64,000 nt of DNA, taken from assembly GCF_045037415.1 (NCBI RefSeq), contig NZ_CP173438.1. One strand, 5' to 3'. Shown piece by piece: positions 9,971-38,952 of the stretch. Each line of letters opens with the position of its first letter. The stretch's first letter is position 1. A program made the position numbers and the translations under genes. Source of the stretch: Escherichia coli. Its GTDB lineage: Bacteria; Pseudomonadota; Gammaproteobacteria; Enterobacterales; Enterobacteriaceae. The notes under the pieces are model-generated. The model worked only from the letters and a program-made list of their open reading frames with translations, did not search any database and had not been told where the DNA came from.

Positions 9971-10642
9971 TTAGCCTCTGATGATTTTAAGCGCCCATGC
10001 GCCACTCATAATGACCAGCAGCACCAGACACATACCAAAAGCCAGCATACAAGCCTGAGCCATATTCATAAAATGCCATGGTGGTAGCAGATACCAGCCT
10101 TCAGATTGCTGATACATTTCCACAAACCACTGTTGCGTGCTGCTCAGTGTGACGCCATCAGGAACGATTGGTGCGTCATAGCCACAATCCCCGGTAGGCT
10201 TGAACCAATTTGGTGCCCACTGTGCCAGCGGCAGGTTAAAGGGAAAAGTGGGATCGGTAGAGCAACCCTGTACGCCAAACAGTGAATCGGGATCCGGATT
10301 ATGTACTGCATGGTGGATATCGTTCAGTTTGAGCGAAAACTTCAGTCCCAAAATGCTGCCGTAAAATGCCATCACGCAGCCAATTAGCTTGAGGATGATG
10401 TTCTTTGGATTGATCGCTGCAACCAATCCTCCAATCACCATCACAAACATGGCGTAGCGAATGTATACACATTGCTCACAGGGTGCCATGTAGAGATAGA
10501 TCTGGAAGAAAGAGTGCGCCAGGATAATTAACGTGCCCATCGCAACGGCCATTAACAACCACAACAAGCGTTGCTCCTGCCATCTGACCAGTGTGTCAAC
10601 TGGTGATGTGCGAAGATCTTTCCACATTCCCTTAATACCCAT
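9971..10642 (-). CDS. dsbI: DsbB-like membrane disulfide oxidoreductase DsbI, 223 aa
   Basis: Polytopic membrane protein with a CEQC pair in the first periplasmic loop and a large C-terminal domain; partner of dsbL and assT. Confidence 0.8.
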
Positions 10643-10656
10643 AGCCTGTTTCCCTG

Positions 10657-11325
10657 TTATTTGCTTGCTAACTCACGGATAAGGTCTGCCATCGCGTCGA
10701 TGGATTTGATGCTCTTGGTGTAGATCAAGTACTTACCATTAACGACATAGGCTGGAACCCCCTGGATTTTGGCGACATCATAAGAGGCTTTCCATTTTTC
10801 CAGTGTTTCTTGAACTGCTGGTTCTTTCAGTGCCGCTTCAAAATCCGCCTGACTCATACCTGCGGCATCCAGACCAGTTTTGATAAAGGCAGCGGGATCT
10901 TTACCGTCAGACCAGCGTTCTTTTTTGTCGTGATAAGCCGCGTAGTAGGCAAACTTGGCTTTCTTAAACTGAGAGTTAGCATCAAATAAGGAAATGCCTG
11001 CTGCTTTATCTTTATTGATCAAGACCGCAAAGACTTCGCTTGCTTGTTTGCCGTATTCACCTTTGGTTTCCAGATGGAACGGCGTGAAAGCAACGATATC
11101 TTTCACTTTTTCCGATACCGGACCGGTAACCGCTTTGTCGTACTTGTAACAGAACGGGCAGGCGTAGCTAAATACCTTAATCAGCGTTTTGTCGGCATTC
11201 GGAATAGGTTTTTCCAGAACCATGTAATCCGTGCCTTCGGTAAATGCAGAAGCGGTAAATGAAACAGCCAAAGCTGCGGTAAGCAGTATGGTTTTAAATA
11301 GTGATGAGATCCCTAATTTCGACAT
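10657..11325 (-). CDS. dsbL: Periplasmic thiol:disulfide oxidoreductase DsbL (DsbA paralogue), 222 aa
   Basis: Signal peptide plus thioredoxin-fold active site CPFC (..[14 protein letters not shown]..). Confidence 0.85.
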
Positions 11326-11342
11326 TTTTATTCCCTTCTTAA

Positions 11343-19805: not shown

Positions 19806-21701
<1,896 letters not shown>

Positions 21702-21764: not shown

Positions 21765-23906
21765 TCAAAATTCCATTTTCACCGTGAATTGCACTTCACG
21801 CGGATCGCCAATCTGATTCCCCAGATTATTTGTGGCGATGGAAGAGGTGTAATACGTTTTATCAAACAGGTTTTTGACGTTTAATTGCAGTGTGACCGGA
21901 TACTGCAATTTCATTTTGTATGCGGCGAAGGCATCGGCAACAAAATAGCCTGGCAGATAATAGTCAGCCCCATTGGTTGCCGAACGACGGCTTACACCAT
22001 GTCCACCACCGCCAAATGTCAGCGTATTATTGCCTGGCATGTTATGAATATCATAGGTCAGGAATAGCGAACCGGTATGACGAGGAACATTCGGCAATGG
22101 TTTCCCTGCATAATCAGGATCCTCCAGAACCTTAGCATCGGTATAGCCGTAGCTGGCAATGATATTAATGTTTTCAGTTAATGCTCCCGCAAGGTCGACT
22201 TCTACCCCTCTTGAACGAACACGGCCTGCCGTTTTGGCGATGGTTTCATCACCAATACTTTCGGTATACAACACATTACGTTTATGGATATCAAACAGCG
22301 CAATATCTGCGGTGATACCATCGAATAGCTCGAATTTTGCCCCGACTTCGTAAGCATTAGATGATTCCGGTGGAAGATCGCCAATGTAGCTGGCAATTGA
22401 CGACTGCGGCATAAATGTTTGCGAATAATTGGCAAATAAGGATACCGATGGCGTCAGTTTGTAGACCAACCCCAGTTTGGGAGTCCATTGTTCATCGCGG
22501 CTGTCAGTATTGACATTAAAAGGACGGCCTTTACCCGCATACTGCGTGTAATACTGATAGCGGATCCCGGCGACGGCAATCCAGTTATCGGTCAGATAGA
22601 GTGCGTCCTGTGCATACGCTGAGTAGCTCTCCTGTTTGATCGTCTGATCACTGTCCGACGCCGAAACCGTTGTACATTTGCTGGTATTACCATAAACAGG
22701 GTTGTAAATATTGAAATCTTTAGCTTTTTTACAGCGAATCATATCTGTACGCAGAAGATCATAATATTCATATGACACCCCACCCAGAATCTCATTATAG
22801 AATCCGGCAATATCAACATTCCCTTGCAGATCCGCACGAGTAGCATGCATACGCTGGGTAGAGCCCTGAGTTGCATCAACACGCCGTGTCAGTGTTCCTG
22901 TCGTTGCATCATATGCGGTAACACGCGCCTGATTATCGCTGTATTTATCCTGGCTGTAGCTGTAATCAAAGCGTGCTGTCCACTGGCTATTGAGATGATA
23001 TTCTGCGTTGAGTTGCGCCAGATCGGACTGACCATCTGTAATATTAAACGGTTCGTCAAAACGTATTTTTCGATCAACGTTTACGGGCTGTTTCGTCGTA
23101 AGGTCGAAAATCGTTCCACGATCGAACGGAGTTTTATAGTCCCGATGGGAATAGAGCATGGTTACTGTTGCATTATCACCAAACCATGTGAGTGACGGGG
23201 CAATAAATGTACTGCGCTCTTTACCGAAGTTTCGCCAGTAATCTTCATCCTGCACTTCCCCGGTAAGGCGATACGCCAGCTGAGTGCCTTCAATGGGACC
23301 TGTGATATCAAGTTGCCCAGTGCCGCCACCAAAACTGGAGGAGGTGGCTGAAACCGAACCATGGAATGTTTTTTCCGGGCGCTTGGTCACGACGTTAATC
23401 AGTCCGCCAGGATCGAGAATGCCATACAGCGTGGAGGCCGGGCCTTTTAGCACTTCCACACGTTCTGTGGCGGCGTTGAAACTGCGAGGAAGTACGGTTC
23501 GCAGACCGTTGGTCATGATGGAGCCATCCCGGTTTGCGCCAAACCCACGGCGTACAAAGGCGTCCTGAGTTCCGCCTAATGTATTGGTCTGTACCACGTT
23601 ACTGACGTTATAAAGCGCCTCATCCAGCGTTGTCGCATTCTGGTTTTCCAGAACCTGATCGCTAACCGTATTGACCACCTGCGGGATATCCAGCATCGGC
23701 ATATCGGTTAATGTCGCCGTAGAGGTGCTCAGAGGTTGATAACCATCGGTTGCCTCAGTTGCGGTATTTGCATCTGCTGTAACAGTGATTGTTTCGCCAT
23801 CTTTGGTCGTTACAGAGTCTGTTGCATGAATCATCGGTGCCGCAAAAAGCAGTGAAAAGAGCGCCCGACCTTTGAGTCCTGAGAATGAAGGTGTGAACAT
23901 AGCCAT
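21765..23906 (-). CDS. TonB-dependent outer-membrane siderophore receptor (fit-locus FitA-like), 713 aa
   Basis: Signal peptide, plug-domain and C-terminal beta-barrel ending ...QFTVKMEF (terminal aromatic residue); divergent from an iron-type ABC importer with a Fur-box-like site between them. Confidence 0.8.
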   Translation of the reverse strand: MAMFTPSFSGLKGRALFSLLFAAPMIHATDSVTTKDGETITVTADANTATEATDGYQPLSTSTATLTDMPMLDIPQVVNTVSDQVLENQNATTLDEALYNVSNVVQTNTLGGTQDAFVRRGFGANRDGSIMTNGLRTVLPRSFNAATERVEVLKGPASTLYGILDPGGLINVVTKRPEKTFHGSVSATSSSFGGGTGQLDITGPIEGTQLAYRLTGEVQDEDYWRNFGKERSTFIAPSLTWFGDNATVTMLYSHRDYKTPFDRGTIFDLTTKQPVNVDRKIRFDEPFNITDGQSDLAQLNAEYHLNSQWTARFDYSYSQDKYSDNQARVTAYDATTGTLTRRVDATQGSTQRMHATRADLQGNVDIAGFYNEILGGVSYEYYDLLRTDMIRCKKAKDFNIYNPVYGNTSKCTTVSASDSDQTIKQESYSAYAQDALYLTDNWIAVAGIRYQYYTQYAGKGRPFNVNTDSRDEQWTPKLGLVYKLTPSVSLFANYSQTFMPQSSIASYIGDLPPESSNAYEVGAKFELFDGITADIALFDIHKRNVLYTESIGDETIAKTAGRVRSRGVEVDLAGALTENINIIASYGYTDAKVLEDPDYAGKPLPNVPRHTGSLFLTYDIHNMPGNNTLTFGGGGHGVSRRSATNGADYYLPGYFVADAFAAYKMKLQYPVTLQLNVKNLFDKTYYTSSIATNNLGNQIGDPREVQFTVKMEF

Positions 23907-24005
23907 TTAGTCTGTTATCCCAAAAACTCGCGGATTGTCGCGAGTGAAAATTGTTTCTTATTGCTCACTAAGCACTATCCGTTTGTTATTTCGCCATCGG
24001 ATATG

Positions 24006-24024
24006 TAATTGAGAATCATTCAAT
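24006..24024. promoter_or_regulatory. Candidate Fur box in the divergent promoter region between the receptor and the ABC importer operon
   Basis: TAATTGAGAATCATTCAAT resembles the Fur consensus GATAATGATAATCATTATC (about 11/19, core GAGAATCATTC); AT-rich intergenic region. Confidence 0.45.
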
Positions 24025-24279
24025 CACGCAGTAATGTAGTAGTAAATGAGAAATAACAAAAAATTGCTACATGTGTTTTTATGAAAGGTTTATACAATTT
24101 GATTGCTTTTAATTTATTGATATTTAATGTTTTTATTTTTATGTATAAAAATATTTTACCTGTTATTTACCTTGTTTTTGTGTGGCTTTTAACTGCTTGA
24201 CTACTACATTTTGTGGCGTCAAACTCTCAAAGGAGAATGAGTTTTATTTTTGTTTGTCTTTGATTAAGTTGGCGTACAC

Positions 24280-25089
24280 GTGGCACATAACGCAAAAGGG
24301 CAGGGGCTGATCCTCGACAATGTTTCTGCCGGGTATCACAAGAAAATCATTGTTGATGGTGTTTCTTTCTCCGTTCCCACAGAAAAAATGACCGTTCTGG
24401 TTGGGGCAAACGGCTGTGGAAAGTCGACGTTGCTCAGCACCATTGCACGTATCTTGCAACCTATGGGCGGTTCGATATTGCTTGATGGCAAAGCGATTCA
24501 CGAGCAACCAACGAAAGCGTTATCCCGTAGACTTGGGATCTTGCCGCAGTCGCCATTATTGCCGGAGGGCTTAACCGTTTATGAACTGGTGTCGCGTGGG
24601 CGTTTTCCCTGGCAAAATTTCATACGTCAATGGAGCGACGCCGATGAGCAGGCGGTGGAAGAGGCCCTGAAATTAACCGGTACGCAGGAGTTTGCACATT
24701 TACCTGTTGAAAAACTCTCTGGTGGGCAGCGCCAGCGTTGCTGGATTGCGATGGTGTTGGCGCAAAAGACGCCTTATATCCTGCTGGATGAACCCACAAC
24801 CTGGCTTGATTTACGTTATCAGGTTGAAATTCTTGAGTTATTACATGATTTAACGCGTCATCACGGGCGTACAGTCGTCGTGGTGTTGCATGATCTGAAT
24901 TTTGCCGTCAATTATGGCGATACGTTGATATTTTTACGCCAGGGGAAAGTGGTGCGTGTGTTGAATGAGGGGGAGCATTGCACGCCTGAACTGGTAAAAG
25001 CTGTCTTTGACGTTGATGTTCACGCATCAATAAATCCTCTGACGGGAAAGCCGTTCTTCATGCCGTTTCGTGGTGTAGAAAAAGTATGA
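24280..25089 (+). CDS. ABC transporter ATP-binding protein (iron-siderophore/FecE-like), 269 aa, GTG start
   Basis: Walker A GANGCGKST, ABC signature LSGGQRQR, Walker B ILLDEPT. Confidence 0.85.
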   Translation: MAHNAKGQGLILDNVSAGYHKKIIVDGVSFSVPTEKMTVLVGANGCGKSTLLSTIARILQPMGGSILLDGKAIHEQPTKALSRRLGILPQSPLLPEGLTVYELVSRGRFPWQNFIRQWSDADEQAVEEALKLTGTQEFAHLPVEKLSGGQRQRCWIAMVLAQKTPYILLDEPTTWLDLRYQVEILELLHDLTRHHGRTVVVVLHDLNFAVNYGDTLIFLRQGKVVRVLNEGEHCTPELVKAVFDVDVHASINPLTGKPFFMPFRGVEKV

Positions 25090-26069
25090 TGCGCACAGGG
25101 CTGGTTACTGTAATTTTCCTCGCCTTACTGCTGGTGGGATGCGTGGTATATCCAGGGATTGGTGCCCGATTTATTGCACCACAAACGGTGTTGCAGGCAT
25201 TTCTTCATTTTGATCCGCAAAACTTCGATCACAACGTAATTGTAAGACTCCGTTTGCCGCGTTTAGCGGCAGCATTGCTTACCGGTGCTTCTCTTGGTGT
25301 TGCTGGTGCTTTGTTGCAGGCTGTCATTCGTAACCCATTGGGGGAACCACATATTTTAGGCTTAAATGCCGGAGCCGCTCTTGCTGTCGTTGCCGCCAGT
25401 GCGCTTGGACTGGCCTTTCCGGTTGGACGCCCACTGCTGGCATCTACGGGGGGCGCGTTATTGTTCCTGTTGATATTGCTGCTTTCCTCCGCAGGGCGTT
25501 CAGGGTTAACGCCAATGAAAGTTACTTTATGCGGCGTGGCGCTATCGGCGTTCGTGTCCTCAATAACGGCTGCAATCCTGATTCTTGACGAACAAACACT
25601 GCTGGCGATGCGGACATGGCTAGCAGGTGATTTAGCGGGGCAGGATTGGGCGACGCTGGGTACGTCCGCCTGGTTTTCTCTGGGGGGATTTGTGTTAGCC
25701 CTTTACCTTGCACCCTCCCTTAACATGTTGGCACTGGGCGATCGCATGGCGCAGGGGCTGGGCGTCTCTGTACTCCGCACGCGAACATTCACCCTGCTTG
25801 CGATCGCGTTGCTCTGTGGCGCAGCCGTATCGATTGCTGGCCCCATTGGTTTTGTCGGCCTGCTAGTACCGCAGATTGTCCGGCGTCTGGTATCAGCGGA
25901 TCTGCGCGTTCTGCTCCCTCTTTCAGCTTGTGTCGGCGCGCTTTTGTTATTACTGGCAGATATTATTGCCCGGACGCTTTTCACGCCCCATGAGTTAGCG
26001 ACCGGTGTCATGACGGCGTTAGTTGGTGCGCCTGTTTTTGTCATTATGGCGACGAGGATGTTCAAATGA
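25086..26069 (+). CDS. ABC transporter permease (FecCD family), 327 aa
   Basis: Polytopic hydrophobic protein; start overlaps the ATPase stop (translational coupling). Confidence 0.85.
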   Translation: MMRTGLVTVIFLALLLVGCVVYPGIGARFIAPQTVLQAFLHFDPQNFDHNVIVRLRLPRLAAALLTGASLGVAGALLQAVIRNPLGEPHILGLNAGAALAVVAASALGLAFPVGRPLLASTGGALLFLLILLLSSAGRSGLTPMKVTLCGVALSAFVSSITAAILILDEQTLLAMRTWLAGDLAGQDWATLGTSAWFSLGGFVLALYLAPSLNMLALGDRMAQGLGVSVLRTRTFTLLAIALLCGAAVSIAGPIGFVGLLVPQIVRRLVSADLRVLLPLSACVGALLLLLADIIARTLFTPHELATGVMTALVGAPVFVIMATRMFK

Positions 26070-27115
26070 GTCGGATAATGAACGTCGGGCTACGCCCACT
26101 ACGTGTTGGTAAGTTTTCGACACTGGTGCGCCCTAAAAATCTGCTGTTGCTTGGTGGGCTGTTCCTGCTTGCGGTTGGAATACTGATATTCGGTCTGATG
26201 CAGGGTTCTTTCTCTGTTCCGGCATCGGAAGTAGGACGAGCGTTGTTTGCTCCAGAAAACGTAAGCACAGACGCACGTTATATTGTGCAGGATATTCGCT
26301 TGCCGAGAGTCATCATGGCATTGCTATGCGGGGCCATGTTAGGTATGGCAGGGGCCGCAATGCAATCCATTGCACGTAACGGCCTTGCCGATCCTGGTTT
26401 AATCGGCGTCAAAGAAGGATGTAGCGTGGCTGTGCTGTGGCTGATTTTCCAGTTTCCAATGCTGGGAATGTTCTGGCGTCCAGTGGCTGGTCTTGCTGGT
26501 GGCCTGTTGGTGGCTTTAATCGTGATTTTTTGTGCGCGCGATATTTCCCGCCCGCGATTTGTTCTGATTGGTATTGGTGTTTCCTGGTTTTTCGCCGCCG
26601 GTATCGGTGTATTTATGACCACTGCAGATGTTCGAGATGTACAAACTGCATTGATGTGGTTATCGGGAAGCCTGCATGCAGCTAACTGGATGTTAGTCGG
26701 TATTTCAGCCTGTTGGATGTTGCCAGCCGCTCTTTTATTGCTGTTCACCGCCAGGACTGCGGATATCGCTCTGCTTGGTCATCAGGTTGCAACCGGGTTA
26801 GGGGTGAATAGTTCTCGTCTGGCGTTGTTACGTGTCGCCGCACCCATAATCCTGACAGCCGTCTGCGTTTCGTGTGTTGGTAACATCGGTTTTGTCGGAT
26901 TGATAGCACCCCATATATCACGTTTTATTCTACGTGGCGGGCAGACGACATTACTGCTGGGGAGCGCGGTATCGGGGGCGTTGTTAGTTATTCTGGCGGA
27001 TAGCATTGGTCGTTTGGCTTTTTTGCCTTTGCAACTGCCTGCCGGAATCATTATCTCACTGATTGGTGGACCATTTTTTTTACTACTGCTCTGGCAGCGC
27101 AGGAACAGTTTTTAA
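26066..27115 (+). CDS. ABC transporter permease (FecCD family), 349 aa
   Basis: Second FecCD-type permease; start overlaps the preceding stop. Confidence 0.85.
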   Translation: MSRIMNVGLRPLRVGKFSTLVRPKNLLLLGGLFLLAVGILIFGLMQGSFSVPASEVGRALFAPENVSTDARYIVQDIRLPRVIMALLCGAMLGMAGAAMQSIARNGLADPGLIGVKEGCSVAVLWLIFQFPMLGMFWRPVAGLAGGLLVALIVIFCARDISRPRFVLIGIGVSWFFAAGIGVFMTTADVRDVQTALMWLSGSLHAANWMLVGISACWMLPAALLLLFTARTADIALLGHQVATGLGVNSSRLALLRVAAPIILTAVCVSCVGNIGFVGLIAPHISRFILRGGQTTLLLGSAVSGALLVILADSIGRLAFLPLQLPAGIIISLIGGPFFLLLLWQRRNSF

Positions 27116-27125
27116 CGGGAGTTAT

Positions 27126-28073
27126 ATGCGTTTATTTTTTTCTCTGCTGATACTGTTGTCATTTTTTTCCCGTGCAACAGAACCTGTTCAGGTATTTACT
27201 GATGATTTAGGGCGCAAAGTCACTGTTCCTGCTCATCCAAAGAGAATTGTCTCTTTACACGATCTTGATATCACTATTCCTCTGATTGAGCTCGGTGTAC
27301 CTCCTGTCGCCAGCCACGGGCGAACTCGGCCTGACGGTAGCCATTTCATTCGATCTGGCGCGTTATTGACAGGTGTCGACTTTGATAATTCATCGATCGC
27401 CTTTATTGGTACCGCTGATATTGATATTGAAGCGATTGTGGCGGCAAAGCCTGACTTGATCATCACAGAACCGACCCGTAATACGCCCATTGAACAACTT
27501 GAAAAAATTGCGCCCACGGTGAGCATTGATCATCTCAAAGGGGGCGCGCCAGAAATCTATCGCAAGCTGGCAGAACTTACAGGAACGCAGTCGCAGCTGG
27601 CGATACTTGAACGCCGCTATCAGGCACAAATCAATGCGCTGAAGGCGACGCTGGACAGCCAAAAAATAACGGTATCGGTGATTCAGGCAAACCAGGGAAA
27701 AATTAATGTGATGCATAGCTATCATTCGCTGGGACGGGTATTACGCGATGCTGGTTTTCGTTTTCCGCCGCTGATTGAGAGCATTCCTGAAGGTGGGCGA
27801 ATGGATGTGAGCGCGGAGCGTTTACCTGAACTGGATGCCGATTTTGTTTTTGCAACCTGGCGCGGTGACACCGGTGGTAAACCTCAGGATGAGCTGGCAG
27901 CAATGGAAAAAGTCATGCCGGGATGGTGTCAGTTTCTGACTGCCTGTCGTTCCGGGCGTTATGTGCTGATTTCTCGTGAAGAGGCAATTTCTAACTCCTT
28001 TGCATCTCTGGGGCTGATGGCTGCGCAGATACAATCACAAATTGCAGGGCGACCTCTACCGGAGGCTAAATGA
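27126..28073 (+). CDS. Periplasmic iron-siderophore binding protein (FhuD/FecB-like), about 315 aa
   Basis: ORF 27063..28073; start chosen at the ATG preceded by GGGAG; signal peptide MRLFFSLLILLSFFSRA; class III SBP-like composition. Confidence 0.8.
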   Translation: MRLFFSLLILLSFFSRATEPVQVFTDDLGRKVTVPAHPKRIVSLHDLDITIPLIELGVPPVASHGRTRPDGSHFIRSGALLTGVDFDNSSIAFIGTADIDIEAIVAAKPDLIITEPTRNTPIEQLEKIAPTVSIDHLKGGAPEIYRKLAELTGTQSQLAILERRYQAQINALKATLDSQKITVSVIQANQGKINVMHSYHSLGRVLRDAGFRFPPLIESIPEGGRMDVSAERLPELDADFVFATWRGDTGGKPQDELAAMEKVMPGWCQFLTACRSGRYVLISREEAISNSFASLGLMAAQIQSQIAGRPLPEAK

Positions 28074-28957
28074 TCCAGAAAGATAAAGTGCGGGTTGATA
28101 TTTTTGGTGAGCGTTTTCGCACTCGCGCGAGTCAGTTAACGCCTGGGTTAAGAGTTGTCGCCAGCTACATTAATGAGCATCGTGAAGTGGTACTCGAGCA
28201 AACGGCGATGGAAATTGCGGCCACGTTGAACACTTCCGATGCCACAGTTATCAGGGCTATACAGGCCCTGGGGTTTGCCGGGCTGCGTGATCTGAAACGC
28301 ACTCTGGAACAGTGGCTTGGTCCAGCCCTTAGTTCCAGCGAAAAGATGTCTACGACGGTGAGTAACTTGACGAGCGATGTTAACACCGCAATCGACTTTG
28401 TTCTTGAAGGGCATTTGTATACCTGTAATGTCCTGTCAGAGCCTGAAAACCGCCACGCGCTTGCGCAAGCTGTAGCGTTGTTGGTGCAGGCACGGCAAGT
28501 CGCAATTTTTGGCATTGGCGCTTCGGGTATTCTGGCGGACTATACCGCACGACTATTCAACCGCATAGGTTTGCCTGCCACGGCACTAAACCGTACGGGT
28601 ATTGGCCTTGCCGAGCAACTGATCGCGCTTCAACGTGGCGATGTTCTGATCATGATGGCGCAAAAATCTGCGCACCGGGAAGGGCTGACAACGCTTCGTG
28701 AGGCGAGGCGGCTGGGGATCCCTGTTATTTTGCTGACAAACGCGCTGGATTCACGTTTTAGCAAAGACGCCAGTATCGTGATTCATGTTCCGCGCGGGGA
28801 TGAAAAAGGGAAAACGCCGCTACATGGTACGGTATTGTTGTGTCTGGAAATGATTGTCTGGTCGGTAGCTTCCGCAGTGCCGCAGCGTGCGGTTAAAACC
28901 ATTAAGCGAATTAACGATTTCCATCGAGGACTGAAAACGGGAAGAAAGAATGGCTAA
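28070..28957 (+). CDS. RpiR/MurR-family transcriptional regulator (HTH plus SIS domain; fit-locus FitR-like), 295 aa
   Basis: N-terminal HTH (..EIAATLNTSDATVIRAIQALGF..) and C-terminal SIS-type sugar-phosphate binding region; start overlaps the binding-protein stop. Confidence 0.8.
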   Translation: MIQKDKVRVDIFGERFRTRASQLTPGLRVVASYINEHREVVLEQTAMEIAATLNTSDATVIRAIQALGFAGLRDLKRTLEQWLGPALSSSEKMSTTVSNLTSDVNTAIDFVLEGHLYTCNVLSEPENRHALAQAVALLVQARQVAIFGIGASGILADYTARLFNRIGLPATALNRTGIGLAEQLIALQRGDVLIMMAQKSAHREGLTTLREARRLGIPVILLTNALDSRFSKDASIVIHVPRGDEKGKTPLHGTVLLCLEMIVWSVASAVPQRAVKTIKRINDFHRGLKTGRKNG

Positions 28958-29346: not shown

Positions 29347-29928
29347 TTAACCAAAAATTTCCACAAGATGCTTGCGATATTCTTCAGTATAGCGGGGAAC
29401 ATCAGGCATTTTTATCACGTCATTAGCGATAAATGTCGGCAGCGGTTCCATGCCAAGGAATTGGTTTGCTTTATGGAACGGCAGGTACACACCGTCAACA
29501 CCAACGCCGTGGAAGAACTGATCTTTTTCGGTGAAGGCTTCCATTGGTGCGTTCCAGGTCAGAGAAAGCATATATTTTTTGCCCTGTACCAGGCCGCCGG
29601 AACCGTATTTTTTTGATGGATCTTTGCGGGTACGACCATCGCTGGCATACAGAGTCCCGTGACCTTCGGTGAATACATCATCAATATATTTTTTCACTGT
29701 CCACGGCGCGCCCATCCACCAGCCAGGCATCTGCCAGATCACCACATCAGCCCAGAGAAAGTTTTGTACTTCCGCTTTGACATCGTAGTCGCTGTCGGCG
29801 CGAACAATGCGGACATCATGCCCGAGGTCGCGCAGTGTGCCATCCGCGACTTCGGTCAGGGTGTCGTTCAGTTGACCATTGGAGTGGGCGAATTTTTTCG
29901 CGCCGTTGATAATCAGGATGTTGCTCAT
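29347..29928 (-). CDS. mdaB: NADPH:quinone oxidoreductase MdaB, 193 aa
   Basis: ORF 29347..30084; start at MSNILIINGAKKFAHSNGQLNDTL... (flavodoxin-like fold). Confidence 0.9.
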   Translation of the reverse strand: MSNILIINGAKKFAHSNGQLNDTLTEVADGTLRDLGHDVRIVRADSDYDVKAEVQNFLWADVVIWQMPGWWMGAPWTVKKYIDDVFTEGHGTLYASDGRTRKDPSKKYGSGGLVQGKKYMLSLTWNAPMEAFTEKDQFFHGVGVDGVYLPFHKANQFLGMEPLPTFIANDVIKMPDVPRYTEEYRKHLVEIFG

Positions 29929-30178
29929 TTTTTTAACCTCAAGGTGAGACGTTTGCCGACTATAGTACGTCACAGAGCGGTACGGTGAAATTAGCAAAAT
30001 GTGCAAAGTCTTTTGCGAATTTAGCAAAAGTCTGATCTTTCTCTGATTCACCGATGCGGGATAAATATTTTCTGAAAATGACAATACTTAAATCAACTTC
30101 CCATAAGCTCCCACAGGAGAGATGTATTATGCAAATGATACAGGAGTTTTTCGGAAAAAATGATTATGGAGAATATAT

Positions 30179-30658
30179 ATGTCAAATATGATATACTTAT
30201 CAATTAAAGGGAAAATACAAGGTTTGATCTCTGAGGGTTGTGGTTCGTATGCATCTATTGGTAATAAATATCAAATAAATCATGTGGATGAAATTTTTGT
30301 TTTACAGTTCGACCATTCTTTAAGTCGAGAGTATAATGTAGTGCATCACCCCATAAAATTTTACAAGCCAATAGATAAATCCTCCCCTTTATTAAATGCC
30401 GCTCTTTCTGAAAATGAAGAGTTATCAGCTGTATTTAATTTTTATAGAATTAATTCTGGCGGTTGTATTGAAAGGTTTTACACAATTGAATTGCAAGGAG
30501 CACATTTATCGAATATTCTGACATGTTATCCACACTCAATTACACATGCGGGTAATCAGCCGGAAGAGGTCATTGTTCTTAATTATAAAAATATAACATG
30601 GAAGCACCATATCGCGAGTACGGAATCATATAGTTGTTGGGAAGAAAGGATTTTTTAA
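30179..30658 (+). CDS. hcp: Orphan Hcp-family protein (type VI secretion tube/cargo-carrier family), 159 aa
   Basis: Product MSNMIYLSIKGKIQG...HHPIKFYKPIDKSSPLLNAAL...FNFYRINSGG...VIVLNYKNITWKHH... follows the conserved Hcp pattern; AT-rich; no other T6SS core genes in the window. Confidence 0.75.
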   Translation: MSNMIYLSIKGKIQGLISEGCGSYASIGNKYQINHVDEIFVLQFDHSLSREYNVVHHPIKFYKPIDKSSPLLNAALSENEELSAVFNFYRINSGGCIERFYTIELQGAHLSNILTCYPHSITHAGNQPEEVIVLNYKNITWKHHIASTESYSCWEERIF

Positions 30659-30660
30659 AT

Positions 30661-31371
30661 ATGAAAAGCGATCTCACTATAAAAAATAGATATTGTACAA
30701 TTCCACAAGCGAAGTTCCGTAAATGGGATGAAATGGACGTTTTACTCTGGAAGTTAGGAAAAAATGATTCGCGTCGCCGTTCAGGAGTATATTATTTAAA
30801 TGCTTATAAAGATGCATATGTACAATATAATAGAGACAAAATAATTAAATATGCATACGCCGCTGGAATTCGTCCAGAGTTACTGGGCGGCGTGGCCTGG
30901 ATTGAGTCAGGAGGTATGCCTGAAAATTATAAGTTTCAGATATATGAAACAAAAAGAATGATCGGATTGTTAGATATGCCTGAAAATAAAACATCATTTG
31001 GCTCAATGGGTATACAAATACGAACCGCAGCGATTACTCTAGGTCTAGACCCTTCAGAATTAACTACCAGAAATCAGTTAGAGTTAGCGACATGCCTAAT
31101 GGAGGATGATTTTACCTTTCAAATTGCTGCTACTTATTTAAGAGATCTTGTTCTTTTTGATTATCCCTCTTCGGCAACACTGTATATGACGAATGAGCAG
31201 TATATTATGGCTGGTATTAGATATAATCGTGGTGTTGAACGAGATTTGGGTTTTTTTATTTGTTTAATTAATAATTTGCCTGCACGTGATACAGATGATT
31301 ATAAATTCATCTCTTATGGTATGAGGTTGTTAGAGATTAGAGAACATATCAAAAAATTGATTAATGAGTAA
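30661..31371 (+). CDS. Putative Hcp-associated effector with lytic-transglycosylase (SLT / lysozyme-like) motifs, 236 aa, no signal peptide
   Basis: ATG preceded by AAGGA, 2 nt after the hcp stop. Ordered motifs: E82-S83 (WIESGG), G117-I-Q-I120 with TAA (SMGIQIRTAA), A157-T-Y-L160 (QIAATYLRDL), Y188-N-R-G191 (GIRYNRG). AT-rich. Confidence 0.6.
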   Translation: MKSDLTIKNRYCTIPQAKFRKWDEMDVLLWKLGKNDSRRRSGVYYLNAYKDAYVQYNRDKIIKYAYAAGIRPELLGGVAWIESGGMPENYKFQIYETKRMIGLLDMPENKTSFGSMGIQIRTAAITLGLDPSELTTRNQLELATCLMEDDFTFQIAATYLRDLVLFDYPSSATLYMTNEQYIMAGIRYNRGVERDLGFFICLINNLPARDTDDYKFISYGMRLLEIREHIKKLINE

Positions 31372-31377
31372 TCAGAT

Positions 31378-31710
31378 ATGTTAAAAAAACAACTACTATC
31401 AATATTTGAAGCACTATTATATATAATGCTTACTTATTGGTTAATAGATTCTTTTTTTGCTTTCAATAAGTATGACTGGATGCTTGAGTCGGGAGACAAT
31501 ATTTGCAGTATACCTTCTGTTTCAGGCGAAGATCGTATATTACAAGCAATGATTGCAGCATTTTTTCTTCTGACACCACTTATTATTCTTATCTTAAGAA
31601 AACTCTTTATGCGGGAAATGTTCGAGTTTTGGCTATATGTATTCTCGCTCGTTATTTGTCTGGGTTGTGGTTGGTGGCTTTTTTGGGGACGGTTTATATT
31701 TTGCTATTAG
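31378..31710 (+). CDS. ygiZ: Small polytopic inner-membrane protein YgiZ, 110 aa; candidate cognate immunity protein
   Basis: Starts 6 nt after the effector stop on the same strand; three predicted TM helices; matches YgiZ in size and in position next to qseC. Confidence 0.7.
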   Translation: MLKKQLLSIFEALLYIMLTYWLIDSFFAFNKYDWMLESGDNICSIPSVSGEDRILQAMIAAFFLLTPLIILILRKLFMREMFEFWLYVFSLVICLGCGWWLFWGRFIFCY

Positions 31711-31755
31711 TAAAGTCTATGAGAGTCGTTTTAACGGCTCTCATAGACAGAGAAG

Positions 31756-33105
31756 TTACCAGCTTACCTTCGCTTCAAATCCACCTTGTTTCGCATTCCC
31801 AAAATCAACATTCATGCCATGCAATTTGGCGATTCGCTGGACAATCGATAGCCCAAGTCCACTGCCGGTAGCGGTTTGTCCGGGTGGGCGATAGAAGCGT
31901 TCGCCAATTCGCGCCAGTGCCTCTGGTGTCACACCAGGGCCGTTATCCCTCACGATGAAATTATCGGCATTCAGCGTGACGTCTACCACGCTACCTTGTG
32001 GACTGTAACGCACGGCGTTATCCAGCAAATTTCGCACCAACAAACTTAGCAATAGCGGTTGTCCGGTGCGTTTGATGCCGTTGGCATTGAGTGTCAGTCG
32101 CACGTCAATGTTCGCCTGCTGCGCCGTGTGGTAAATATCCATCACCGACGATTGCAGGAGATCTTCAAGCGGGATCTCCGCGACGTCCTGAAGGTTATCC
32201 AGTGAGTCCAGCCGCGATAGCGTGAGCAGTTGATCAACCAGACGAGTAGCGCGATCGATCCCGGAATGTAATTGGAGCAGCGCTTTTTTCCGCGCCTGCG
32301 GATCATCGTCAGAGAGCTGAGCAACTTCGGTTTGCACTTTCAGCGCCGTTAACGGGCTACGAAGTTCGTGAGCTGCGTCGGAGGTAAAGCGTCGTTCACG
32401 AACCATCATCGCATGTGTGCGGGCGAACAGTTGATTTAGCGACTCAACCAGTGGGCGCACTTCGCTGGGTACGCCCGTCGCGTTTAGTGGTTTTTCCGAG
32501 TCTGGGTCACGCATACGTAGTGCCAGCGCCAGTTTGTTCAGCGGCGCGAGTTCACGACCCAGTAGCACCATCATGATGATTAACATAATCGGCAGTGCGA
32601 CCAGCCACGGGATCAATTGTCCGGCAACAATCGCCAGCGCCATGTCTTCACGGTATTCCCATTCCTGACCCACAACGATGCGATATTTGCCATCAGGTGA
32701 GGTCATCCAGACAAAACGCCAGGGATCGTCTTCACCGACCAGTTGCCCGTCAGCAAAACCTTCCCGCTGATAGCTATAGGGAATATCTTCTCCGTTATCG
32801 CCATCGTTAAGGACCATTCTGCCGTCGTGGGTAAAGATGGCAAAAGTCAGCGCATCGTCATCAACATGACCGTGTTTTAATTTATTTGGCGTCTGTGCCA
32901 TGCGATCCGCCGCGTTGATTTCGTTGAGATCGAGCGTACTTAACCGTTTGGCAAACAGCATCAGTTGGGTGTCGAACAACTCATCGACGTTATCCGTTGT
33001 TTGTTTCCAGGCGACAAAGCTGGAAAGCAGCCAGGTCACCGAGGCCAGAATTAAAAAGATTAGCGTCAGCCTGACTCGCAGACTAAGACGTTGGGTAAAT
33101 TTCAT
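31756..33105 (-). CDS. qseC: Sensor histidine kinase QseC, 449 aa
   Basis: Two TM segments, HAMP, H-box (..[12 protein letters not shown]..) and HATPase region; overlaps the qseB stop. Confidence 0.9.
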
Positions 33106-33912: not shown

Positions 33913-34305
33913 ATGAAAAAATTCGCAGCAGTAATCGCAGTAATGGCCCTGTGCAGTGCACCGGTTATGGCAGCAGAGCAGGGAGGTTTTTCTGGCCCAT
34001 CGGCAACGCAAAGTCAGGCCGGAGGATTCCAGGGGCCGAACGGCAGCGTAACGACTGTAGAAAGCGCAAAATCCCTGCGTGACGACACCTGGGTAACCCT
34101 ACGCGGCAATATCGTTGAACGCATCTCTGACGATCTCTACGTGTTCAAAGATGCCAGCGGTACTATCAATGTTGATATCGACCATAAACGCTGGAACGGC
34201 GTGACGGTGACGCCGAAAGATACGGTTGAGATTCAGGGTGAAGTCGATAAAGACTGGAACTCTGTTGAAATTGACGTCAAACAGATCCGCAAAGTAAATC
34301 CGTAA
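33913..34305 (+). CDS. ygiW: Periplasmic BOF/OB-fold stress protein YgiW (VisP), 130 aa
   Basis: ORF 33856..34305; start at MKKFAAVIAVMALCSAPVMA (signal peptide); divergent from qseB. Confidence 0.85.
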   Translation: MKKFAAVIAVMALCSAPVMAAEQGGFSGPSATQSQAGGFQGPNGSVTTVESAKSLRDDTWVTLRGNIVERISDDLYVFKDASGTINVDIDHKRWNGVTVTPKDTVEIQGEVDKDWNSVEIDVKQIRKVNP

Positions 34306-34357
34306 TTGTTACCGCTCCCGGGACGCGTTCCCGGGAATAATTTCGCAGGGAGGCAAA

Positions 34358-34840
34358 ATGACAAACCTGACACTGGATGTAAATATTATCGATTTCCCAT
34401 CAATCCCTGTGGCGATGTTGCCGCACCGCTGTAGCCCTGAGTTGCTCAACTACAGCGTGGCGAAATTTATCATGTGGCGTAAAGAGACGGGGCTTTCTCC
34501 TGTTAACCAAAGCCAGACTTTTGGCGTCGCCTGGGACGACCCTGCCACCACCGCACCAGATGCGTTTCGCTTTGATATCTGCGGCAGCGTTAGCGAACCG
34601 ATCCCCGATAATCGTTATGGCGTAAGTAATGGTGAACTTACCGGTGGACGTTATGCTGTGGCCCGCCATGTTGGCGAGCTGGACGATATTTCACACACGA
34701 TATGGGGCATCATTCGCCACTGGCTGCCTGCAAGCGGCGAGAAAATGCGTAAAGCACCGATTCTGTTTCACTACACCAATCTTGCCGAAGGGATGACAGA
34801 GCAGCGACTGGAAATGGATGTTTATGTACCGTTAGCGTGA
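34358..34840 (+). CDS. ygiV: GyrI-like domain protein YgiV, 160 aa
   Basis: 160-aa cytoplasmic protein downstream of ygiW; family and context consistent with YgiV. Confidence 0.8.
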   Translation: MTNLTLDVNIIDFPSIPVAMLPHRCSPELLNYSVAKFIMWRKETGLSPVNQSQTFGVAWDDPATTAPDAFRFDICGSVSEPIPDNRYGVSNGELTGGRYAVARHVGELDDISHTIWGIIRHWLPASGEKMRKAPILFHYTNLAEGMTEQRLEMDVYVPLA

Positions 34841-34948
34841 TGGGGAATCTTTACCGGAGTGTGAGCCAAATCACTCGCGATAAGTTTGAGCAAACAATGC
34901 CACAGGCGTATTGTTGTCGGGCTTATAATTTCTCCGGTAAGGAATACC

Positions 34949-36693: not shown

Positions 36694-38952
36694 ATGAGCG
36701 ATATGGCAGAGCGCCTTGCGCTACATGAATTTACGGAAAACGCCTACTTAAACTACTCCATGTACGTGATCATGGACCGTGCGTTGCCGTTTATTGGTGA
36801 TGGTCTGAAACCTGTTCAGCGCCGCATTGTGTATGCGATGTCTGAGCTGGGCCTGAATGCCAGCGCCAAATTTAAAAAATCGGCCCGTACCGTCGGTGAC
36901 GTACTGGGTAAATACCATCCGCACGGCGATATTGCCTGTTATGTAGCGATGGTCCTGATGGCGCAGCCGTTCTCTTACCGTTATCCGCTGGTTGATGGTC
37001 AGGGGAACTGGGGGGCGCCGGACGATCCGAAATCGTTCGCGGCAATGCGTTACACCGAATCCCGGTTGTCGAAATATTCCGAGCTGCTATTGAGCGAGCT
37101 GGGGCAGGGGACGGCTGACTGGGTGCCAAACTTCGACGGCACTTTGCAGGAGCCGAAAATGCTGCCTGCCCGTCTGCCAAACATTTTGCTTAACGGCACC
37201 ACCGGTATTGCCGTCGGCATGGCGACCGATATTCCACCGCATAACCTGCGTGAAGTGGCTCAGGCGGTAATTGCCTTAATCGACCAGCCGAAAACCACGC
37301 TCGATCAGCTGCTGGATATCGTGCAGGGGCCGGATTATCCGACTGAAGCGGAAATTATCACTTCGCGCGCCGAGATTCGTAAAATCTACGAGAACGGACG
37401 TGGTTCAGTGCGTATGCGCGCGGTTTGGAAGAAGGAAGATGGCGCGGTGGTTATCAGCGCATTGCCGCATCAGGTTTCAGGTGCGCGCGTACTGGAGCAA
37501 ATTGCTGCGCAAATGCGCAACAAAAAGCTGCCGATGGTTGACGATCTGCGCGATGAATCTGACCACGAGAACCCGACCCGTCTGGTGATTGTGCCGCGTT
37601 CCAACCGCGTGGATATGGATCAGGTGATGAACCACCTCTTTGCTACCACCGATCTGGAAAAGAGCTATCGCATTAACCTCAATATGATCGGTCTGGATGG
37701 TCGTCCGGCGGTGAAAAACCTGCTGGAAATCCTCTCCGAATGGCTGGTGTTCCGCCGCGATACCGTGCGCCGCCGACTGAACTATCGTCTGGAGAAAGTT
37801 CTCAAGCGCCTGCATATCCTCGAAGGTTTGCTGGTGGCGTTTCTCAATATCGACGAAGTGATTGAGATCATTCGTAATGAAGATGAACCGAAACCGGCGC
37901 TGATGTCGCGGTTTGGCCTTACGGAAACCCAGGCGGAAGCGATCCTCGAACTGAAACTGCGTCATCTTGCCAAACTGGAAGAGATGAAGATTCGCGGTGA
38001 GCAGAGTGAGCTGGAAAAAGAGCGCGACCAGTTGCAGGGCATTTTGGCTTCCGAGCGTAAAATGAATAACCTGCTGAAGAAAGAACTGCAGGCAGACGCG
38101 CAAGGCTACGGTGACGAACGTCGTTCGCCGTTGCATGAACGCGAAGAAGCGAAAGCGATGAGCGAGCACGACATGCTGCCGTCTGAACCTGTCACCATTG
38201 TGCTGTCGCAGATGGGCTGGGTACGCAGCGCTAAAGGCCATGATATCGACGCGCCGGGCCTGAATTATAAAGCGGGTGATAGCTTCAAAGCGGCGGTGAA
38301 AGGTAAGAGCAACCAACCGGTAGTGTTTGTTGATTCCACCGGTCGTAGCTATGCCATCGACCCGATTACGCTGCCGTCGGCGCGTGGTCAGGGCGAGCCG
38401 CTCACCGGCAAATTAACGTTGCCGCCTGGAGCGACCGTTGACCATATGCTGATGGAAAGCGACGATCAGAAACTGCTGATGGCTTCCGATGCGGGTTACG
38501 GTTTCGTCTGCACCTTTAACGATCTGGTGGCGCGTAACCGTGCAGGTAAGGCTTTGATCACCTTACCGGAAAATGCCCATGTTATGCCGCCGGTGGTGAT
38601 TGAAGATGCTTCCGATATGCTGCTGGCAATCACTCAGGCAGGCCGTATGTTGATGTTCCCGGTAAGCGATCTGCCGCAGCTGTCGAAGGGCAAAGGCAAC
38701 AAGATTATCAACATTCCATCGGCAGAAGCCGCGCGTGGCGAGGATGGCCTGGCGCAACTGTACGTTCTGCCGCCGCAAAGCACGCTGACCATTCATGTTG
38801 GGAAACGCAAAATTAAACTGCGTCCGGAAGAGCTACAGAAAGTCACTGGCGAACGTGGACGCCGCGGTACGTTGATGCGCGGTTTGCAGCGTATCGATCG
38901 TGTTGAGATCGACTCTCCTCGCCGTGCCAGCAGCGGTGATAGCGAAGAGTAA
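36694..38952 (+). CDS. parC: DNA topoisomerase IV subunit A ParC, 752 aa
   Basis: Product [49 protein letters not shown]... with the active-site region AAMRYTE. Confidence 0.95.

Follow-up and report, generated by a model that had tools for sequence, protein, structure and literature searches.

Gene content of the locus

Why should an hcp gene lie between mdaB and qseC in Escherichia coli, and what is encoded by the two genes that directly follow it? In the window, the whole 64-kb stretch of DNA analysed here, a sequence-only reading had described three co-oriented, tight and AT-rich genes at this position, and the ORF list and GC content agree with that description. The genes and the block that holds them are as follows, with the RefSeq accessions and names of the proteins.

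30179-30658, + strand: hcp (tssD), 159 aa, tube protein and cargo carrier of the T6SS, 159-aa clade (WP_000069057.1, 'Hcp family T6SS effector')
30661-31371, + strand: signal-less lysozyme-fold (GH23-like) putative toxin, 236 aa, predicted Hcp cargo effector (WP_000834026.1, 'hypothetical protein')
31378-31710, + strand: ygiZ, DUF2645, 110 aa, three-helix inner-membrane protein, predicted cognate immunity protein (WP_000914696.1, 'ygiZ, DUF2645')
30034..31755, no strand: variable, AT-rich block flanked by the hairpin on the mdaB side and the stop of qseC

The ORF of the putative toxin was listed as 30634-31371, and a conserved ATG start ('MKSDLT') at 30661 gives the protein of 236 aa. The gaps are 2 nt between hcp and the toxin gene and 6 nt between the toxin gene and ygiZ, the spacing given from the outset. 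GC content is 28-38% over about 29900-31850 and ~50% on either side, with 33.7% in the cassette versus 50.3% in its flanks. All three proteins are 100% identical to RefSeq entries in E. coli 21AR0275. In the annotation of a near-identical genome, no further T6SS gene appeared in the stretch matching the 64-kb window, as the sequence-only reading had held for core genes, and no phage genes were found beside the cassette. A simple scan, uninformative here, gave no promoter-like site upstream of hcp.

The cassette had not been recognised as a described one, and our literature search likewise found no paper describing it. Three published candidates were considered and rejected: hcp2B of APEC belongs to a different locus, hcp2B-vgrG2-xmtU/V (PMC5874247), hcp3 of porcine ExPEC is a 1149-bp extended Hcp (PMC4882540), and the orphan hcp of STEC encodes an Hcp-ET nuclease.

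The 159-aa protein is an Hcp

The 159-aa protein matched TIGR03344 over residues 1-157 (E 5.5e-59, 198.8 bits versus a cutoff of 58.9) and also PF05638 (E 8e-20), which upholds its first assignment as an Hcp. Hcps of this cassette from other genera share 56-60% identity with it, and its nearest relatives encoded in T6SS clusters are terminal 159-aa Hcps (C. freundii, 53%; E. albertii, 48%). These terminal Hcps, found after vasL and beside yafT, lie inside complete T6SS clusters, unlike the cassette hcp; small unannotated genes follow them too, and are unrelated to the toxin-YgiZ pair. The Hcp of the host T6SS cluster at metV shares only 32% identity with that of the cassette, so that co-assembly of the two is putative, which counts against a use of the cassette as a weapon. 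There is a precedent for loading, in which a cargo monomer is enclosed by two Hcp rings (PMC13323088).

Fold and conserved motifs of the 236-aa protein

The best AF2 model of the 236-aa protein (pLDDT 77, pTM 0.77; the other four of five models had pLDDT 54-63) shows an all-helical lysozyme/lytic-transglycosylase fold. Its nearest structural neighbours are Slt and MltE, Tse3 is among the top structural matches, and all of the close ones cleave peptidoglycan glycan strands. Three motifs were located in the sequence.

30895..30915, + strand: A79-W-I-E82-S-G-G85, which holds the predicted catalytic glutamate E82 (codon 30904-30906)
30991..31017, + strand: T111-S-x-G-S-x-x-x-Q119, which aligns with 'TSIGLGQ' of Tse3 in a weak profile match
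31222..31233, + strand: Y188-N-R-G191, the counterpart of A-Y-N-x-G in lytic transglycosylases

In our alignments E82 is invariant in 25 close and 78 distant relatives, and it aligns, again in the weak profile match, with the Glu of 'AIILAEQ' in Tse3. T111, S112, G114, S115 and Q119 are invariant in the close relatives, and this motif is the equivalent of G-L-M-Q in family-1 lytic transglycosylases. The YNRG motif is likewise invariant in the close relatives; in the distant ones R-Y-N is nearly invariant and the G invariant. The N-terminus of the protein is hydrophilic, with neither a signal peptide nor a lipobox by hydropathy.

Sequence searches with the 236-aa protein against Pfam, NCBIfam and the PDB gave no match, and the Pfam SLT profile PF01464 did not match it even at E <= 10. 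A PDB profile search with the wider toxin family matched only Tse3 entries and weakly (E 0.31), and the single sequence or the close-family profile did not recover this relation. No relation was seen by hhalign between the toxin family and the SLT-domain protein encoded after VgrG in the host T6SS cluster. The toxin is related to a phage family of unknown function, phrog_11932 (E 5.7e-28). The fold model and the three motifs support the assignment of the 236-aa protein as a lysozyme/lytic-transglycosylase-fold domain, with glycan cleavage as its predicted activity. The 'SLT motif' proposed from the sequence thus holds for the three conserved motifs and the fold, and fails as a match to PF01464.

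The toxin domain is carried by several delivery systems

The domain was found in 372 representatives at E <= 1e-3, and the same domain stands at the C-terminus of Rhs, PAAR, eCIS, WXG100 and MuF proteins; considering this terminal position on such carriers, we regard it as a toxin domain. Among the 78 distant members, Pfam detected eCIS_core in 12, PAAR in 3-4 and WXG100, Phage_Mu_F and RHS in 1 each, while NCBIfam placed an Rhs core in two of them (P0075 and P0169). PF01464 was matched by 1 of the 78 at E <= 1e-3 and by 9 at E <= 0.1. Some relatives also carry PG_binding_1 or OmpA peptidoglycan-binding domains by Pfam, which fits targeting of the sacculus.

YgiZ and the DUF2645 family

RefSeq assigns YgiZ to DUF2645, and precomputed PF10840 matches exist on the downstream genes of other cassettes. 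In its AF2 model helices span residues 2-26, 50-77 and 81-109, in line with three hydrophobic stretches by hydropathy. The most conserved part of the family in the alignments is the following loop.

31456..31524, + strand: YgiZ loop, residues 27-49, N-K-Y-D-W-M-L-E-S-G-D-x-x-C43

The loop is net negative, and the N-terminal segment and segment 74-80 around it are positive; from this charge pattern and the positive-inside rule, the loop is predicted to be periplasmic. YgiZ and YjeO share C43 and the C-terminal C109. YgiZ ends in a hydrophobic stretch ('...WGRFIFCY'), without the charged hydrophilic tail that is typical of holins, and a search of YgiZ against PHROG gave no match.

In all cassettes examined, a DUF2645 gene directly follows the toxin gene, with an overlap or a gap of 0-6 nt. 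A paralogous toxin-YjeO locus exists, and orphan DUF2645 genes also occur in E. whittamii and S. oryzae. These arrangements suggest that ygiZ and yjeO of K-12 are leftover antidotes to this toxin family. To our knowledge, soluble periplasmic cell-wall hydrolases are not usually countered by polytopic membrane proteins, which counts against an effector-immunity reading of the cassette; the immunity proteins Tsi3 and Tgi2 are soluble or lipoproteins. The abstract of one study describes activation of H-NS-repressed loci in K-12 by BglJ-RcsB and names ygiZ (PMC3950696).

The cassette in other genera

The order Hcp-toxin-DUF2645 is shared by E. coli, Pectobacterium, Serratia, Chania, Erwinia and Photorhabdus, and the surrounding genes are unrelated. 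The occurrences outside E. coli were as follows.

Pectobacterium: cassette between pagP and eamA
Serratia: cassette on a conjugative plasmid
Chania: cassette adjoining an integrase and IS elements
Erwinia: trio present
Serratia sp. H1w: two cassette copies
P. zantedeschiae: cassette present
Photorhabdus: cassette present
Vent metagenome: module present

Over 28 locus pairs, identities of toxin and YgiZ were correlated with r = 0.96, versus 0.72 for Hcp and toxin, and the two copies within one Serratia genome are 93% identical in Hcp, 67% in toxin and 39% in YgiZ. Only 5 loci were obtained from GTDB representative genomes when these were scanned with an alignment of YgiZ; this pattern-based scan probably misses divergent members, given that the YjeO-type, Photorhabdus and Rahnella copies came by other routes. 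An E. coli 'plasmid' (NZ_MG591698.1) was rejected as evidence of mobility, as it carries parE-mdaB-qseBC and looks chromosomal.

Distribution and history in E. coli

Among 5426 complete E. coli genomes, all three genes are present in 1261 (23%), ygiZ alone in ~3300 (~61%) and none of them in ~830 (15%); ygiZ as a whole occurs in 4598 genomes versus 1261 for the toxin. At least 80% of both hcp and toxin is kept in 1260 of the 1261, and with one exception the sampled entries were annotated as intact CDSs. The cassette is present, among others, in ATCC 25922 and BEN2908, which we take to be ST73 and ST95, respectively. K-12-type genomes have only ygiZ between mdaB and qseC, as the sequence-only reading had stated; of the block they keep 30034-30088 and ygiZ, which is 92% identical, and alignment of their ~150-bp filler revealed no remnants of hcp or toxin. 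Genomes of the O157:H7 and E2348/69 types are without the whole block 30034..31755, based on junction alignments and the O157 annotation.

Between divergent E. coli alleles dN/dS was 0.12 for hcp, 0.11 for toxin and 0.25 for ygiZ, all from small counts, and by these ratios the cassette is under purifying selection. Its synonymous divergence matches that of the flanking qseC, which suggests long residence and loss in K-12- and O157-type strains. Since K-12 holds no remnants, the direction, gain or loss, is read from this parity only. The cassette had been called 'inserted'; its position is as described, and the direction implied by the word may be wrong in view of the parity with qseC.

Availability of a T6SS

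The window encodes ParC S80I/E84V and ParE I529L, which mark it as ST131-H30. T6SS presence was checked genome by genome in single genomes. The near-identical genome has a T6SS cluster at metV, about 320 kb from the cassette, with tssM split by ISEc12. A T6SS encoded elsewhere, as supposed in the sequence-only reading, is thus present in this near-identical genome. In agreement, the only T6SS of ST131-H30 is reported to have tssM::ISEc12, and ST131 to be without a second TssM (PMC10711316). Owing to the split tssM, the toxin is probably not deliverable in this strain; with the gun probably broken in ST131-H30, only the immunity function can matter here. Lineages ST73 and ST95 are reported with a complete T6SS (PMC10711316). 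In the cassette-positive strain MS 115-1, no T6SS was found at metV or aspV, the two sites examined.

Comparison with known systems

Tse3-Tsi3 (Tge1-Tgi1) of the P. aeruginosa H1-T6SS is linked to the toxin by a sequence relation that is not significant (E 0.31). Tse3 has ~400 aa with an extra N-terminal domain and is not encoded beside hcp, whereas the cassette toxin has 236 aa and adjoins hcp; in place of Tsi3, a beta-sandwich that is soluble or a lipoprotein, the cassette has a three-helix membrane DUF2645 protein, which is not of the Tsi3 type. Tge2-Tgi2 of Pseudomonas protegens (PDB 4kt3) is a much weaker structural match to the toxin, with no sequence match, and Tgi2 is periplasmic and soluble in contrast with the membrane protein YgiZ. 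The PF01464 (GH23) enzymes Slt70, MltE and MltC carry a signal peptide or a lipobox and lack an immunity partner, unlike the signal-less cassette toxin. The Hcp-ET effectors of E. coli are likewise Enterobacteriaceae Hcps with a toxin and then immunity genes, and orphan immunity genes are noted there too in the summary of Ma et al. 2017 given by PMC6730261. Their toxins (HNH-DNase, Tle1, pyocin S3 or colicin DNase) are fused to Hcp, whereas the cassette toxin is a separate gene 2 nt downstream, with a cell-wall-type fold and a membrane immunity protein.

Interpretation of the cassette

We consider it likely that the cassette encodes an orphan Hcp, its T6SS cargo in the form of a cell-wall toxin, and a three-helix membrane immunity protein, with functions assigned by inference. 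As in T6SS effector-immunity modules generally, the genes are adjacent, co-oriented and linked to hcp across taxa, the effector is signal-less, the immunity protein is by predicted topology a membrane protein with its conserved loop in the periplasm, the target compartment, the two co-diverge and orphan immunity genes exist. An orphan Hcp-linked effector-immunity cassette is also what the sequence-only reading had proposed, and fold, domain usage, synteny, co-divergence and orphan immunity genes all agree with it. Counting against it are the failure to match PF01464 or the SLT-domain protein of the host cluster, the low pLDDT of four of the five models, the phage family related to the toxin, the lack of a promoter-like site upstream of hcp in the simple scan and, for delivery, the split tssM of the near-identical genome and the metV and aspV sites of MS 115-1, where no T6SS was found.

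The mechanism that we infer would begin with the 159-aa Hcp forming tube rings, inside which the cytoplasmic, signal-less 236-aa protein would be loaded. A T6SS encoded elsewhere would fire the toxin into the periplasm of a neighbouring Gram-negative cell, where the toxicity would arise from cutting of the glycan strands of peptidoglycan or a membrane-proximal precursor, with E82 as the catalytic acid. YgiZ would protect the producer and its kin from attack by sister cells, most likely by binding the toxin. Strains with ygiZ and without hcp and toxin, for example K-12, would have retained an orphan immunity gene, and yjeO would play the same role at a second, paralogous locus.

The nature of the immunity protein raises the question of where the toxin acts. 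Its site of action might be the outer surface of the inner membrane, with lipid II or lipid-linked nascent glycan as substrate, or it might perturb the membrane, with YgiZ protecting from within. Every cassette pairs the toxin with an integral membrane protein of three helices, the toxin has diverged from canonical SLT domains far enough for Pfam to fail, and membrane-anchored immunity accompanies membrane-surface toxins, as DUF943 does for the colicin-M-like DUF3289 (PMC11148199). Nevertheless, the three lytic-transglycosylase motifs are intact, the close structural neighbours all act on glycan strands of peptidoglycan, and the PG_binding_1 and OmpA domains of some relatives fit the sacculus, so that we regard a membrane-face target as rather improbable. 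Disuse is somewhat easier to imagine, though still unlikely: hcp and toxin could be stranded relics unused throughout E. coli, with only ygiZ functional, in immunity or in an unrelated membrane role. This would be in line with tssM::ISEc12 in ST131-H30 (PMC10711316), with MS 115-1 lacking a T6SS at both canonical sites, with the 32% identity between cluster and cassette Hcps and with the abstract that names ygiZ under BglJ-RcsB and H-NS, a hint that the locus may be silenced (PMC3950696). On the other hand, dN/dS of about 0.11-0.12 for hcp and toxin, though from small counts, and the retention of at least 80% of both genes in all but one of 1261 genomes do not resemble decay. ATCC 25922 and BEN2908 carry the cassette as well, presumably as members of ST73 and ST95. 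Both lineages are reported to have a complete T6SS (PMC10711316).

Two further explanations dispense with a toxin aimed at other cells. Linkage to the structural gene hcp and a fold nearest to Slt and MltE would suit a housekeeping transglycosylase for T6SS assembly, like MltE for EAEC Sci-1, which YgiZ tethers or regulates. We find this very hard to uphold, because a protein without signal peptide or lipobox cannot reach its own periplasm; moreover, Rhs, PAAR, eCIS, WXG100 and MuF toxin carriers terminate in this domain, the cassette is found on plasmids and away from T6SS clusters, and thousands of genomes have ygiZ alone, its divergence following that of the toxin as in an immunity gene. 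The least probable explanation is a phage-derived pair of endolysin and holin-like protein for T6SS-independent lysis or 'type 10'-style release, to which hcp is linked incidentally. A signal-less muramidase-fold protein followed by a ~110-aa three-helix membrane protein does have this appearance, the toxin matches phrog_11932 (E 5.7e-28), and intact copies persist where the T6SS is broken or was not detected. However, Hcp precedes the pair in every full cassette of six genera, YgiZ has neither a PHROG match nor the holin-type tail, no phage genes flank the cassette, and ygiZ persists alone in K-12-type genomes.

Beyond the reading as an Hcp-cargo toxin with its immunity protein, we offer a broader proposal tentatively and with low confidence. 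DUF2645 may represent an unrecognised class of polytopic inner-membrane immunity proteins against a widespread lysozyme-fold toxin delivered by T6SS, eCIS, T7SS-type and MuF-type carriers, which would differ from an ordinary sacculus hydrolase by working where membrane and cell wall meet, for instance on glycan that is nascent or lipid-linked; ygiZ and yjeO of K-12 would then be orphan immunity genes shaping the coexistence of strains in the gut.

If the cassette is what we consider it likely to be, K-12 ygiZ, yjeO and the Pfam family DUF2645 would gain a testable function, and so would a 'hypothetical protein' found in roughly one in four complete E. coli genomes, those with the cassette presumably including the ExPEC lineages ST131, ST73 and ST95. 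With 372 representative clusters on several carriers, naming the toxin domain would annotate many proteins. Three-helix membrane immunity to a lysozyme-fold toxin would be a mechanistic variant worth a structure. Finally, the antidote only in ~61% of genomes, weapon and antidote in 23% and neither in 15% would be the pattern expected from intraspecific T6SS warfare, and could help to explain the exclusion of strains in the gut.

Organization of the mdaB-qseC cassette

Between mdaB and qseC, the window carries three co-oriented open reading frames with gaps of 2 nt (hcp/toxin) and 6 nt (toxin/ygiZ), and their coordinates bear out the arrangement and spacing proposed in the sequence-only reading:

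30179-30658, + strand, hcp, 159 aa
30661 (ATG)-31371, + strand, toxin gene, 236 aa
31378-31710, + strand, ygiZ, 110 aa

The GC content of the cassette block is 33.7%, versus 50.3% in the flanks. All three proteins are identical to RefSeq entries in E. coli 21AR0275, labelled in cassette order as 'Hcp family T6SS effector', 'hypothetical protein' and 'ygiZ: DUF2645 family protein'. In K-12-type genomes ygiZ is the only gene between mdaB and qseC, in line with that reading, and O157:H7- and E2348/69-type genomes have no gene there. Its observation that the window holds no other T6SS core gene also stood, as no further T6SS gene is annotated in the corresponding stretch of a near-identical E. coli genome. 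Just to the left of the AT-rich variable block is a hairpin at 30010-30030 (CTTTTGCGAATTTAGCAAAAG and then a T-rich tail), and the O157-type deletion begins directly after this hairpin.

Elsewhere in the window, parE and ygiN are separated by a 7.2-kb block (21765-28957) with genes for a TonB-dependent siderophore receptor, a MurR/RpiR regulator and an ABC transporter made up of an ATPase, two FecCD permeases and a binding protein; the block is present in O157:H7 and absent in strain PN43, where parE abuts ygiN. Adjoining ygiC, positions 9971-13139 hold dsbI, dsbA/dsbL-like and aryl-sulfate sulfotransferase genes, according to the annotation of the near-identical genome. In PN43 the mqsR-mqsA toxin-antitoxin pair lies between ygiV and ygiS. 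The near-identical genome lacks it and so, it appears, does the window, since there is no large ORF at about 34300-34900 (ygiS starts at 34886).

Hcp and the 236-aa protein

The first protein matched TIGR03344 (E 5.5e-59) and PF05638 (8e-20), and by these profiles its proposed identity as Hcp/TssD is unambiguous. Other described E. coli orphan hcp genes were rejected as the cassette hcp because they lie at different loci.

In the case of the 236-aa protein, sequence searches of Pfam, NCBIfam and the PDB returned no match. Its close family comprises 34 clusters, all from Enterobacterales and all labelled 'hypothetical'. In a 25-member alignment, A-W-I-E82 is invariant within the AWIE(S)GG motif, where a few members differ at Ser83 and Gly84, and T111-S-x-G-S..Q119 and Y188-N-R-G are invariant too; these are the counterparts of the three family-1 lytic transglycosylase motifs. 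AlphaFold2 models the protein as all-helical (pLDDT 77, pTM 0.77, a level reached by only one of five models), and the hydrophilic N-terminus indicates that there is no Sec signal. In P0002, a JGI metagenome protein of 325 aa, the first ~100 residues of the cassette Hcp are fused in-frame to the toxin from residue 12 onward, which is either a natural deletion making an Hcp-toxin fusion or an assembly artefact.

When a profile of the family was searched against 1.84 billion representatives, 372 proteins were found at E ≤ 1e-3, 245 of them at E ≤ 1e-10, and many are proteins of 300-935 aa with the toxin domain at the C-terminus. A Pfam survey of 78 of these proteins identified eCIS_core (12/78), OmpA (5/78), PAAR (3-4/78), PG_binding_1 (2-4/78), and WXG100, Phage_Mu_F and RHS_repeat (1/78 each); SLT was matched weakly, in 1/78 at E ≤ 1e-3 and 9/78 at E ≤ 0.1, and NCBIfam placed an Rhs core in two of the 78. 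The motif glutamate, corresponding to E82, is invariant in 78/78. The only PDB sequences matched by the wider profile were Tse3 entries, weakly (E 0.31), in an alignment that pairs the family Glu and TSxG with 'AIILAEQ' and 'TSIGLGQ' of Tse3. A relationship was also found to phrog_11932, a phage family of unknown function. Since location at the C-terminus of various secreted-toxin carriers marks a domain as a polymorphic toxin domain, the domain of the 236-aa protein is, as judged from these architectures, a toxin domain.

YgiZ, YjeO and recurrence of the module

YgiZ has three hydrophobic segments, modelled by AlphaFold2 as helices 2-26, 50-77 and 81-109. The loop joining the first two helices (N-K-Y-D-W-M-x-E-x-G-D-x-x-C) is its most conserved part, and two cysteines, one in this loop and the other at the very C-terminus, are retained throughout the family. 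From the charge distribution, we infer a predicted topology with a cytoplasmic N-terminus and a periplasmic loop and C-terminus.

The yjeM-mscM interval is a second locus, where a toxin paralogue of 237 aa (34% identical) is accompanied by a DUF2645/YjeO-family gene of its own (E. coli loci L020/L021, 2574-5028; L023; L024, 1572-2197). This full form occurs in 45/5426 E. coli genomes, and K-12-type genomes carry yjeN and yjeO only, so that yjeO looks like another orphan immunity gene. YjeO is about 24% identical to YgiZ and has the loop motif and both cysteines in common with it. K-12 thus appears to carry two orphan members of the immunity family.

The order Hcp (159 aa), toxin (236-246 aa) and DUF2645 (109-112 aa), with genes that overlap or nearly abut, is repeated in unrelated neighbourhoods:

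Pectobacterium: between pagP and eamA
Serratia fonticola: conjugative plasmid, adjoining traI and traX
Chania: beside integrase and IS elements
Erwinia sorbitola: 5' end of hcp disrupted
Serratia sp. H1w: two copies
P. zantedeschiae: same gene order
Photorhabdus: between an ABC transporter and polB

Toxin-DUF2645 pairs occur in a vent metagenome too. Pairwise identities of the toxin and the DUF2645 protein are correlated with r = 0.96 (28 locus pairs), compared with 0.72 for Hcp and toxin. Two copies in one Serratia genome are 93% (Hcp), 67% (toxin) and 39% (DUF2645) identical, the pattern expected were Hcp constrained to fit a single machine, with effector-immunity pairs diversifying in step. 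A further lysozyme-type toxin with an immunity partner seems to lie about 3.5 kb downstream of the cassette in Chania multitudinisentens (locus L007, 10287-11314), where a gene for a Pesticin-domain protein precedes one for an LprI-like protein.

Distribution and history in E. coli

At mdaB-qseC, 1261 of 5426 complete E. coli genomes carry hcp and toxin (+ ygiZ) and 4598/5426 have ygiZ; by difference, about 3300/5426 have ygiZ alone and about 830/5426 neither. Identity among the 1261 is at least 99% in 894 and 95-99% in 367. Among the copies sampled, the sole disrupted one is in strain 1449 (rows H1/H31, NZ_CP184069.1 709805-711774), where IS1 interrupts hcp. Orphan DUF2645 genes are found in E. 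whittamii and Serratia oryzae; that of S. oryzae (locus L015, 3611-4321) lies in a conjugative-element-like region directly after a 91-aa ORF that, by eye, resembles toxins of the ParE/RelE type. Mobile elements may carry the immunity gene on its own, unaccompanied by the toxin.

Comparison of the B2-type allele with the 97% allele of strain MS 115-1 gave, on small counts, dN/dS values of 0.12 (hcp), 0.11 (toxin) and 0.25 (ygiZ), and the cassette dS of about 0.09 was close to the 0.12 of flanking qseC. These values argue for purifying selection and long residence at this site, which would make losses in the K-12- and O157-type genomes more likely than insertion in B2. This direction stays a probable one, as the K-12 filler showed no trace of hcp or the toxin.

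A candidate delivery machine

A T6SS elsewhere in the genome, as the sequence-only reading supposed, was found in the near-identical genome at the metV tRNAs, about 320 kb from the cassette (NZ_CP187203.1 1036290-1077305; loci L012 and L039). The cluster runs tssB..tssH, three vgrG, tssA, tssF-G-J-E and vasL; the three vgrG are followed by M23-peptidase, Tle1/DUF4123 and SLT-domain cargo genes, and tssM is split by ISEc12. The Hcp of this cluster shares only 32% identity with that of the cassette. Among cluster-encoded proteins, those nearest to the cassette Hcp are the terminal Hcps of C. freundii (53%) and E. albertii (48%) clusters, encoded after vasL; the ST131 cluster stops at the VasL-domain gene, without an Hcp after it.

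The window encodes the fluoroquinolone-resistance substitutions S80I and E84V in ParC (36694-38952) and I529L in ParE (19809-21701), the signature of ST131-H30 (clade C), which ties it to a lineage whose only T6SS has this tssM insertion. The same insertion is present in 99.8% of ST131 clade C genomes, and EC958, the reference strain of clade C, lacks a second TssM (PMC10711316). As such, the toxin is probably not deliverable in the window's strain. Among the genomes sampled, the cassette is also present in ATCC 25922 and BEN2908, which belong to ST73 and ST95. Intact T6SS clusters are reported for these two sequence types (PMC10711316). In cassette-positive MS 115-1 (loci L034, 1235-2300; L036, 30363-30659), the two sites examined, metV and aspV, hold no T6SS. 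At its aspV site, IS1 directly adjoins aspV and the yafT-yafV genes are missing, which suggests an IS1-mediated deletion.

Relation to known systems

The sequence-only reading did not recognise the cassette as described, and our searches on T6SS, Hcp, lytic transglycosylase, muramidase and immunity, with most subscription journals outside their reach, likewise found no description of it and no paper mentioning 'DUF2645'. Among the matches listed, none concerned T6SS by title and abstract for ygiZ, nor did any for 'yjeO', a term that matches non-gene text and whose matches were mostly clearly not about the gene. The effectors retrieved were others: Tse3, Tse4/Tae17, TseP, PseM, SleB-like T6EC3 and VT5. 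The cassette would work like Tse3/Tsi3-type systems, but the sequence comparisons do not place the toxin in Tge1, Tge2 or Pfam SLT, and the predicted immunity protein is of a different kind.

Taken together, the toxin domain on other carriers, the recurrence of the module and the parallel divergence of toxin and DUF2645 make an orphan Hcp-cargo effector-immunity cassette, as originally proposed, the best-supported reading, in which a divergent enzyme of lysozyme/lytic-transglycosylase fold would be the toxin and the DUF2645 membrane protein YgiZ would protect against it. The analysis mainly adds a proposed function for ygiZ, yjeO and DUF2645, and it brings to light a widespread toxin domain that has had no name.
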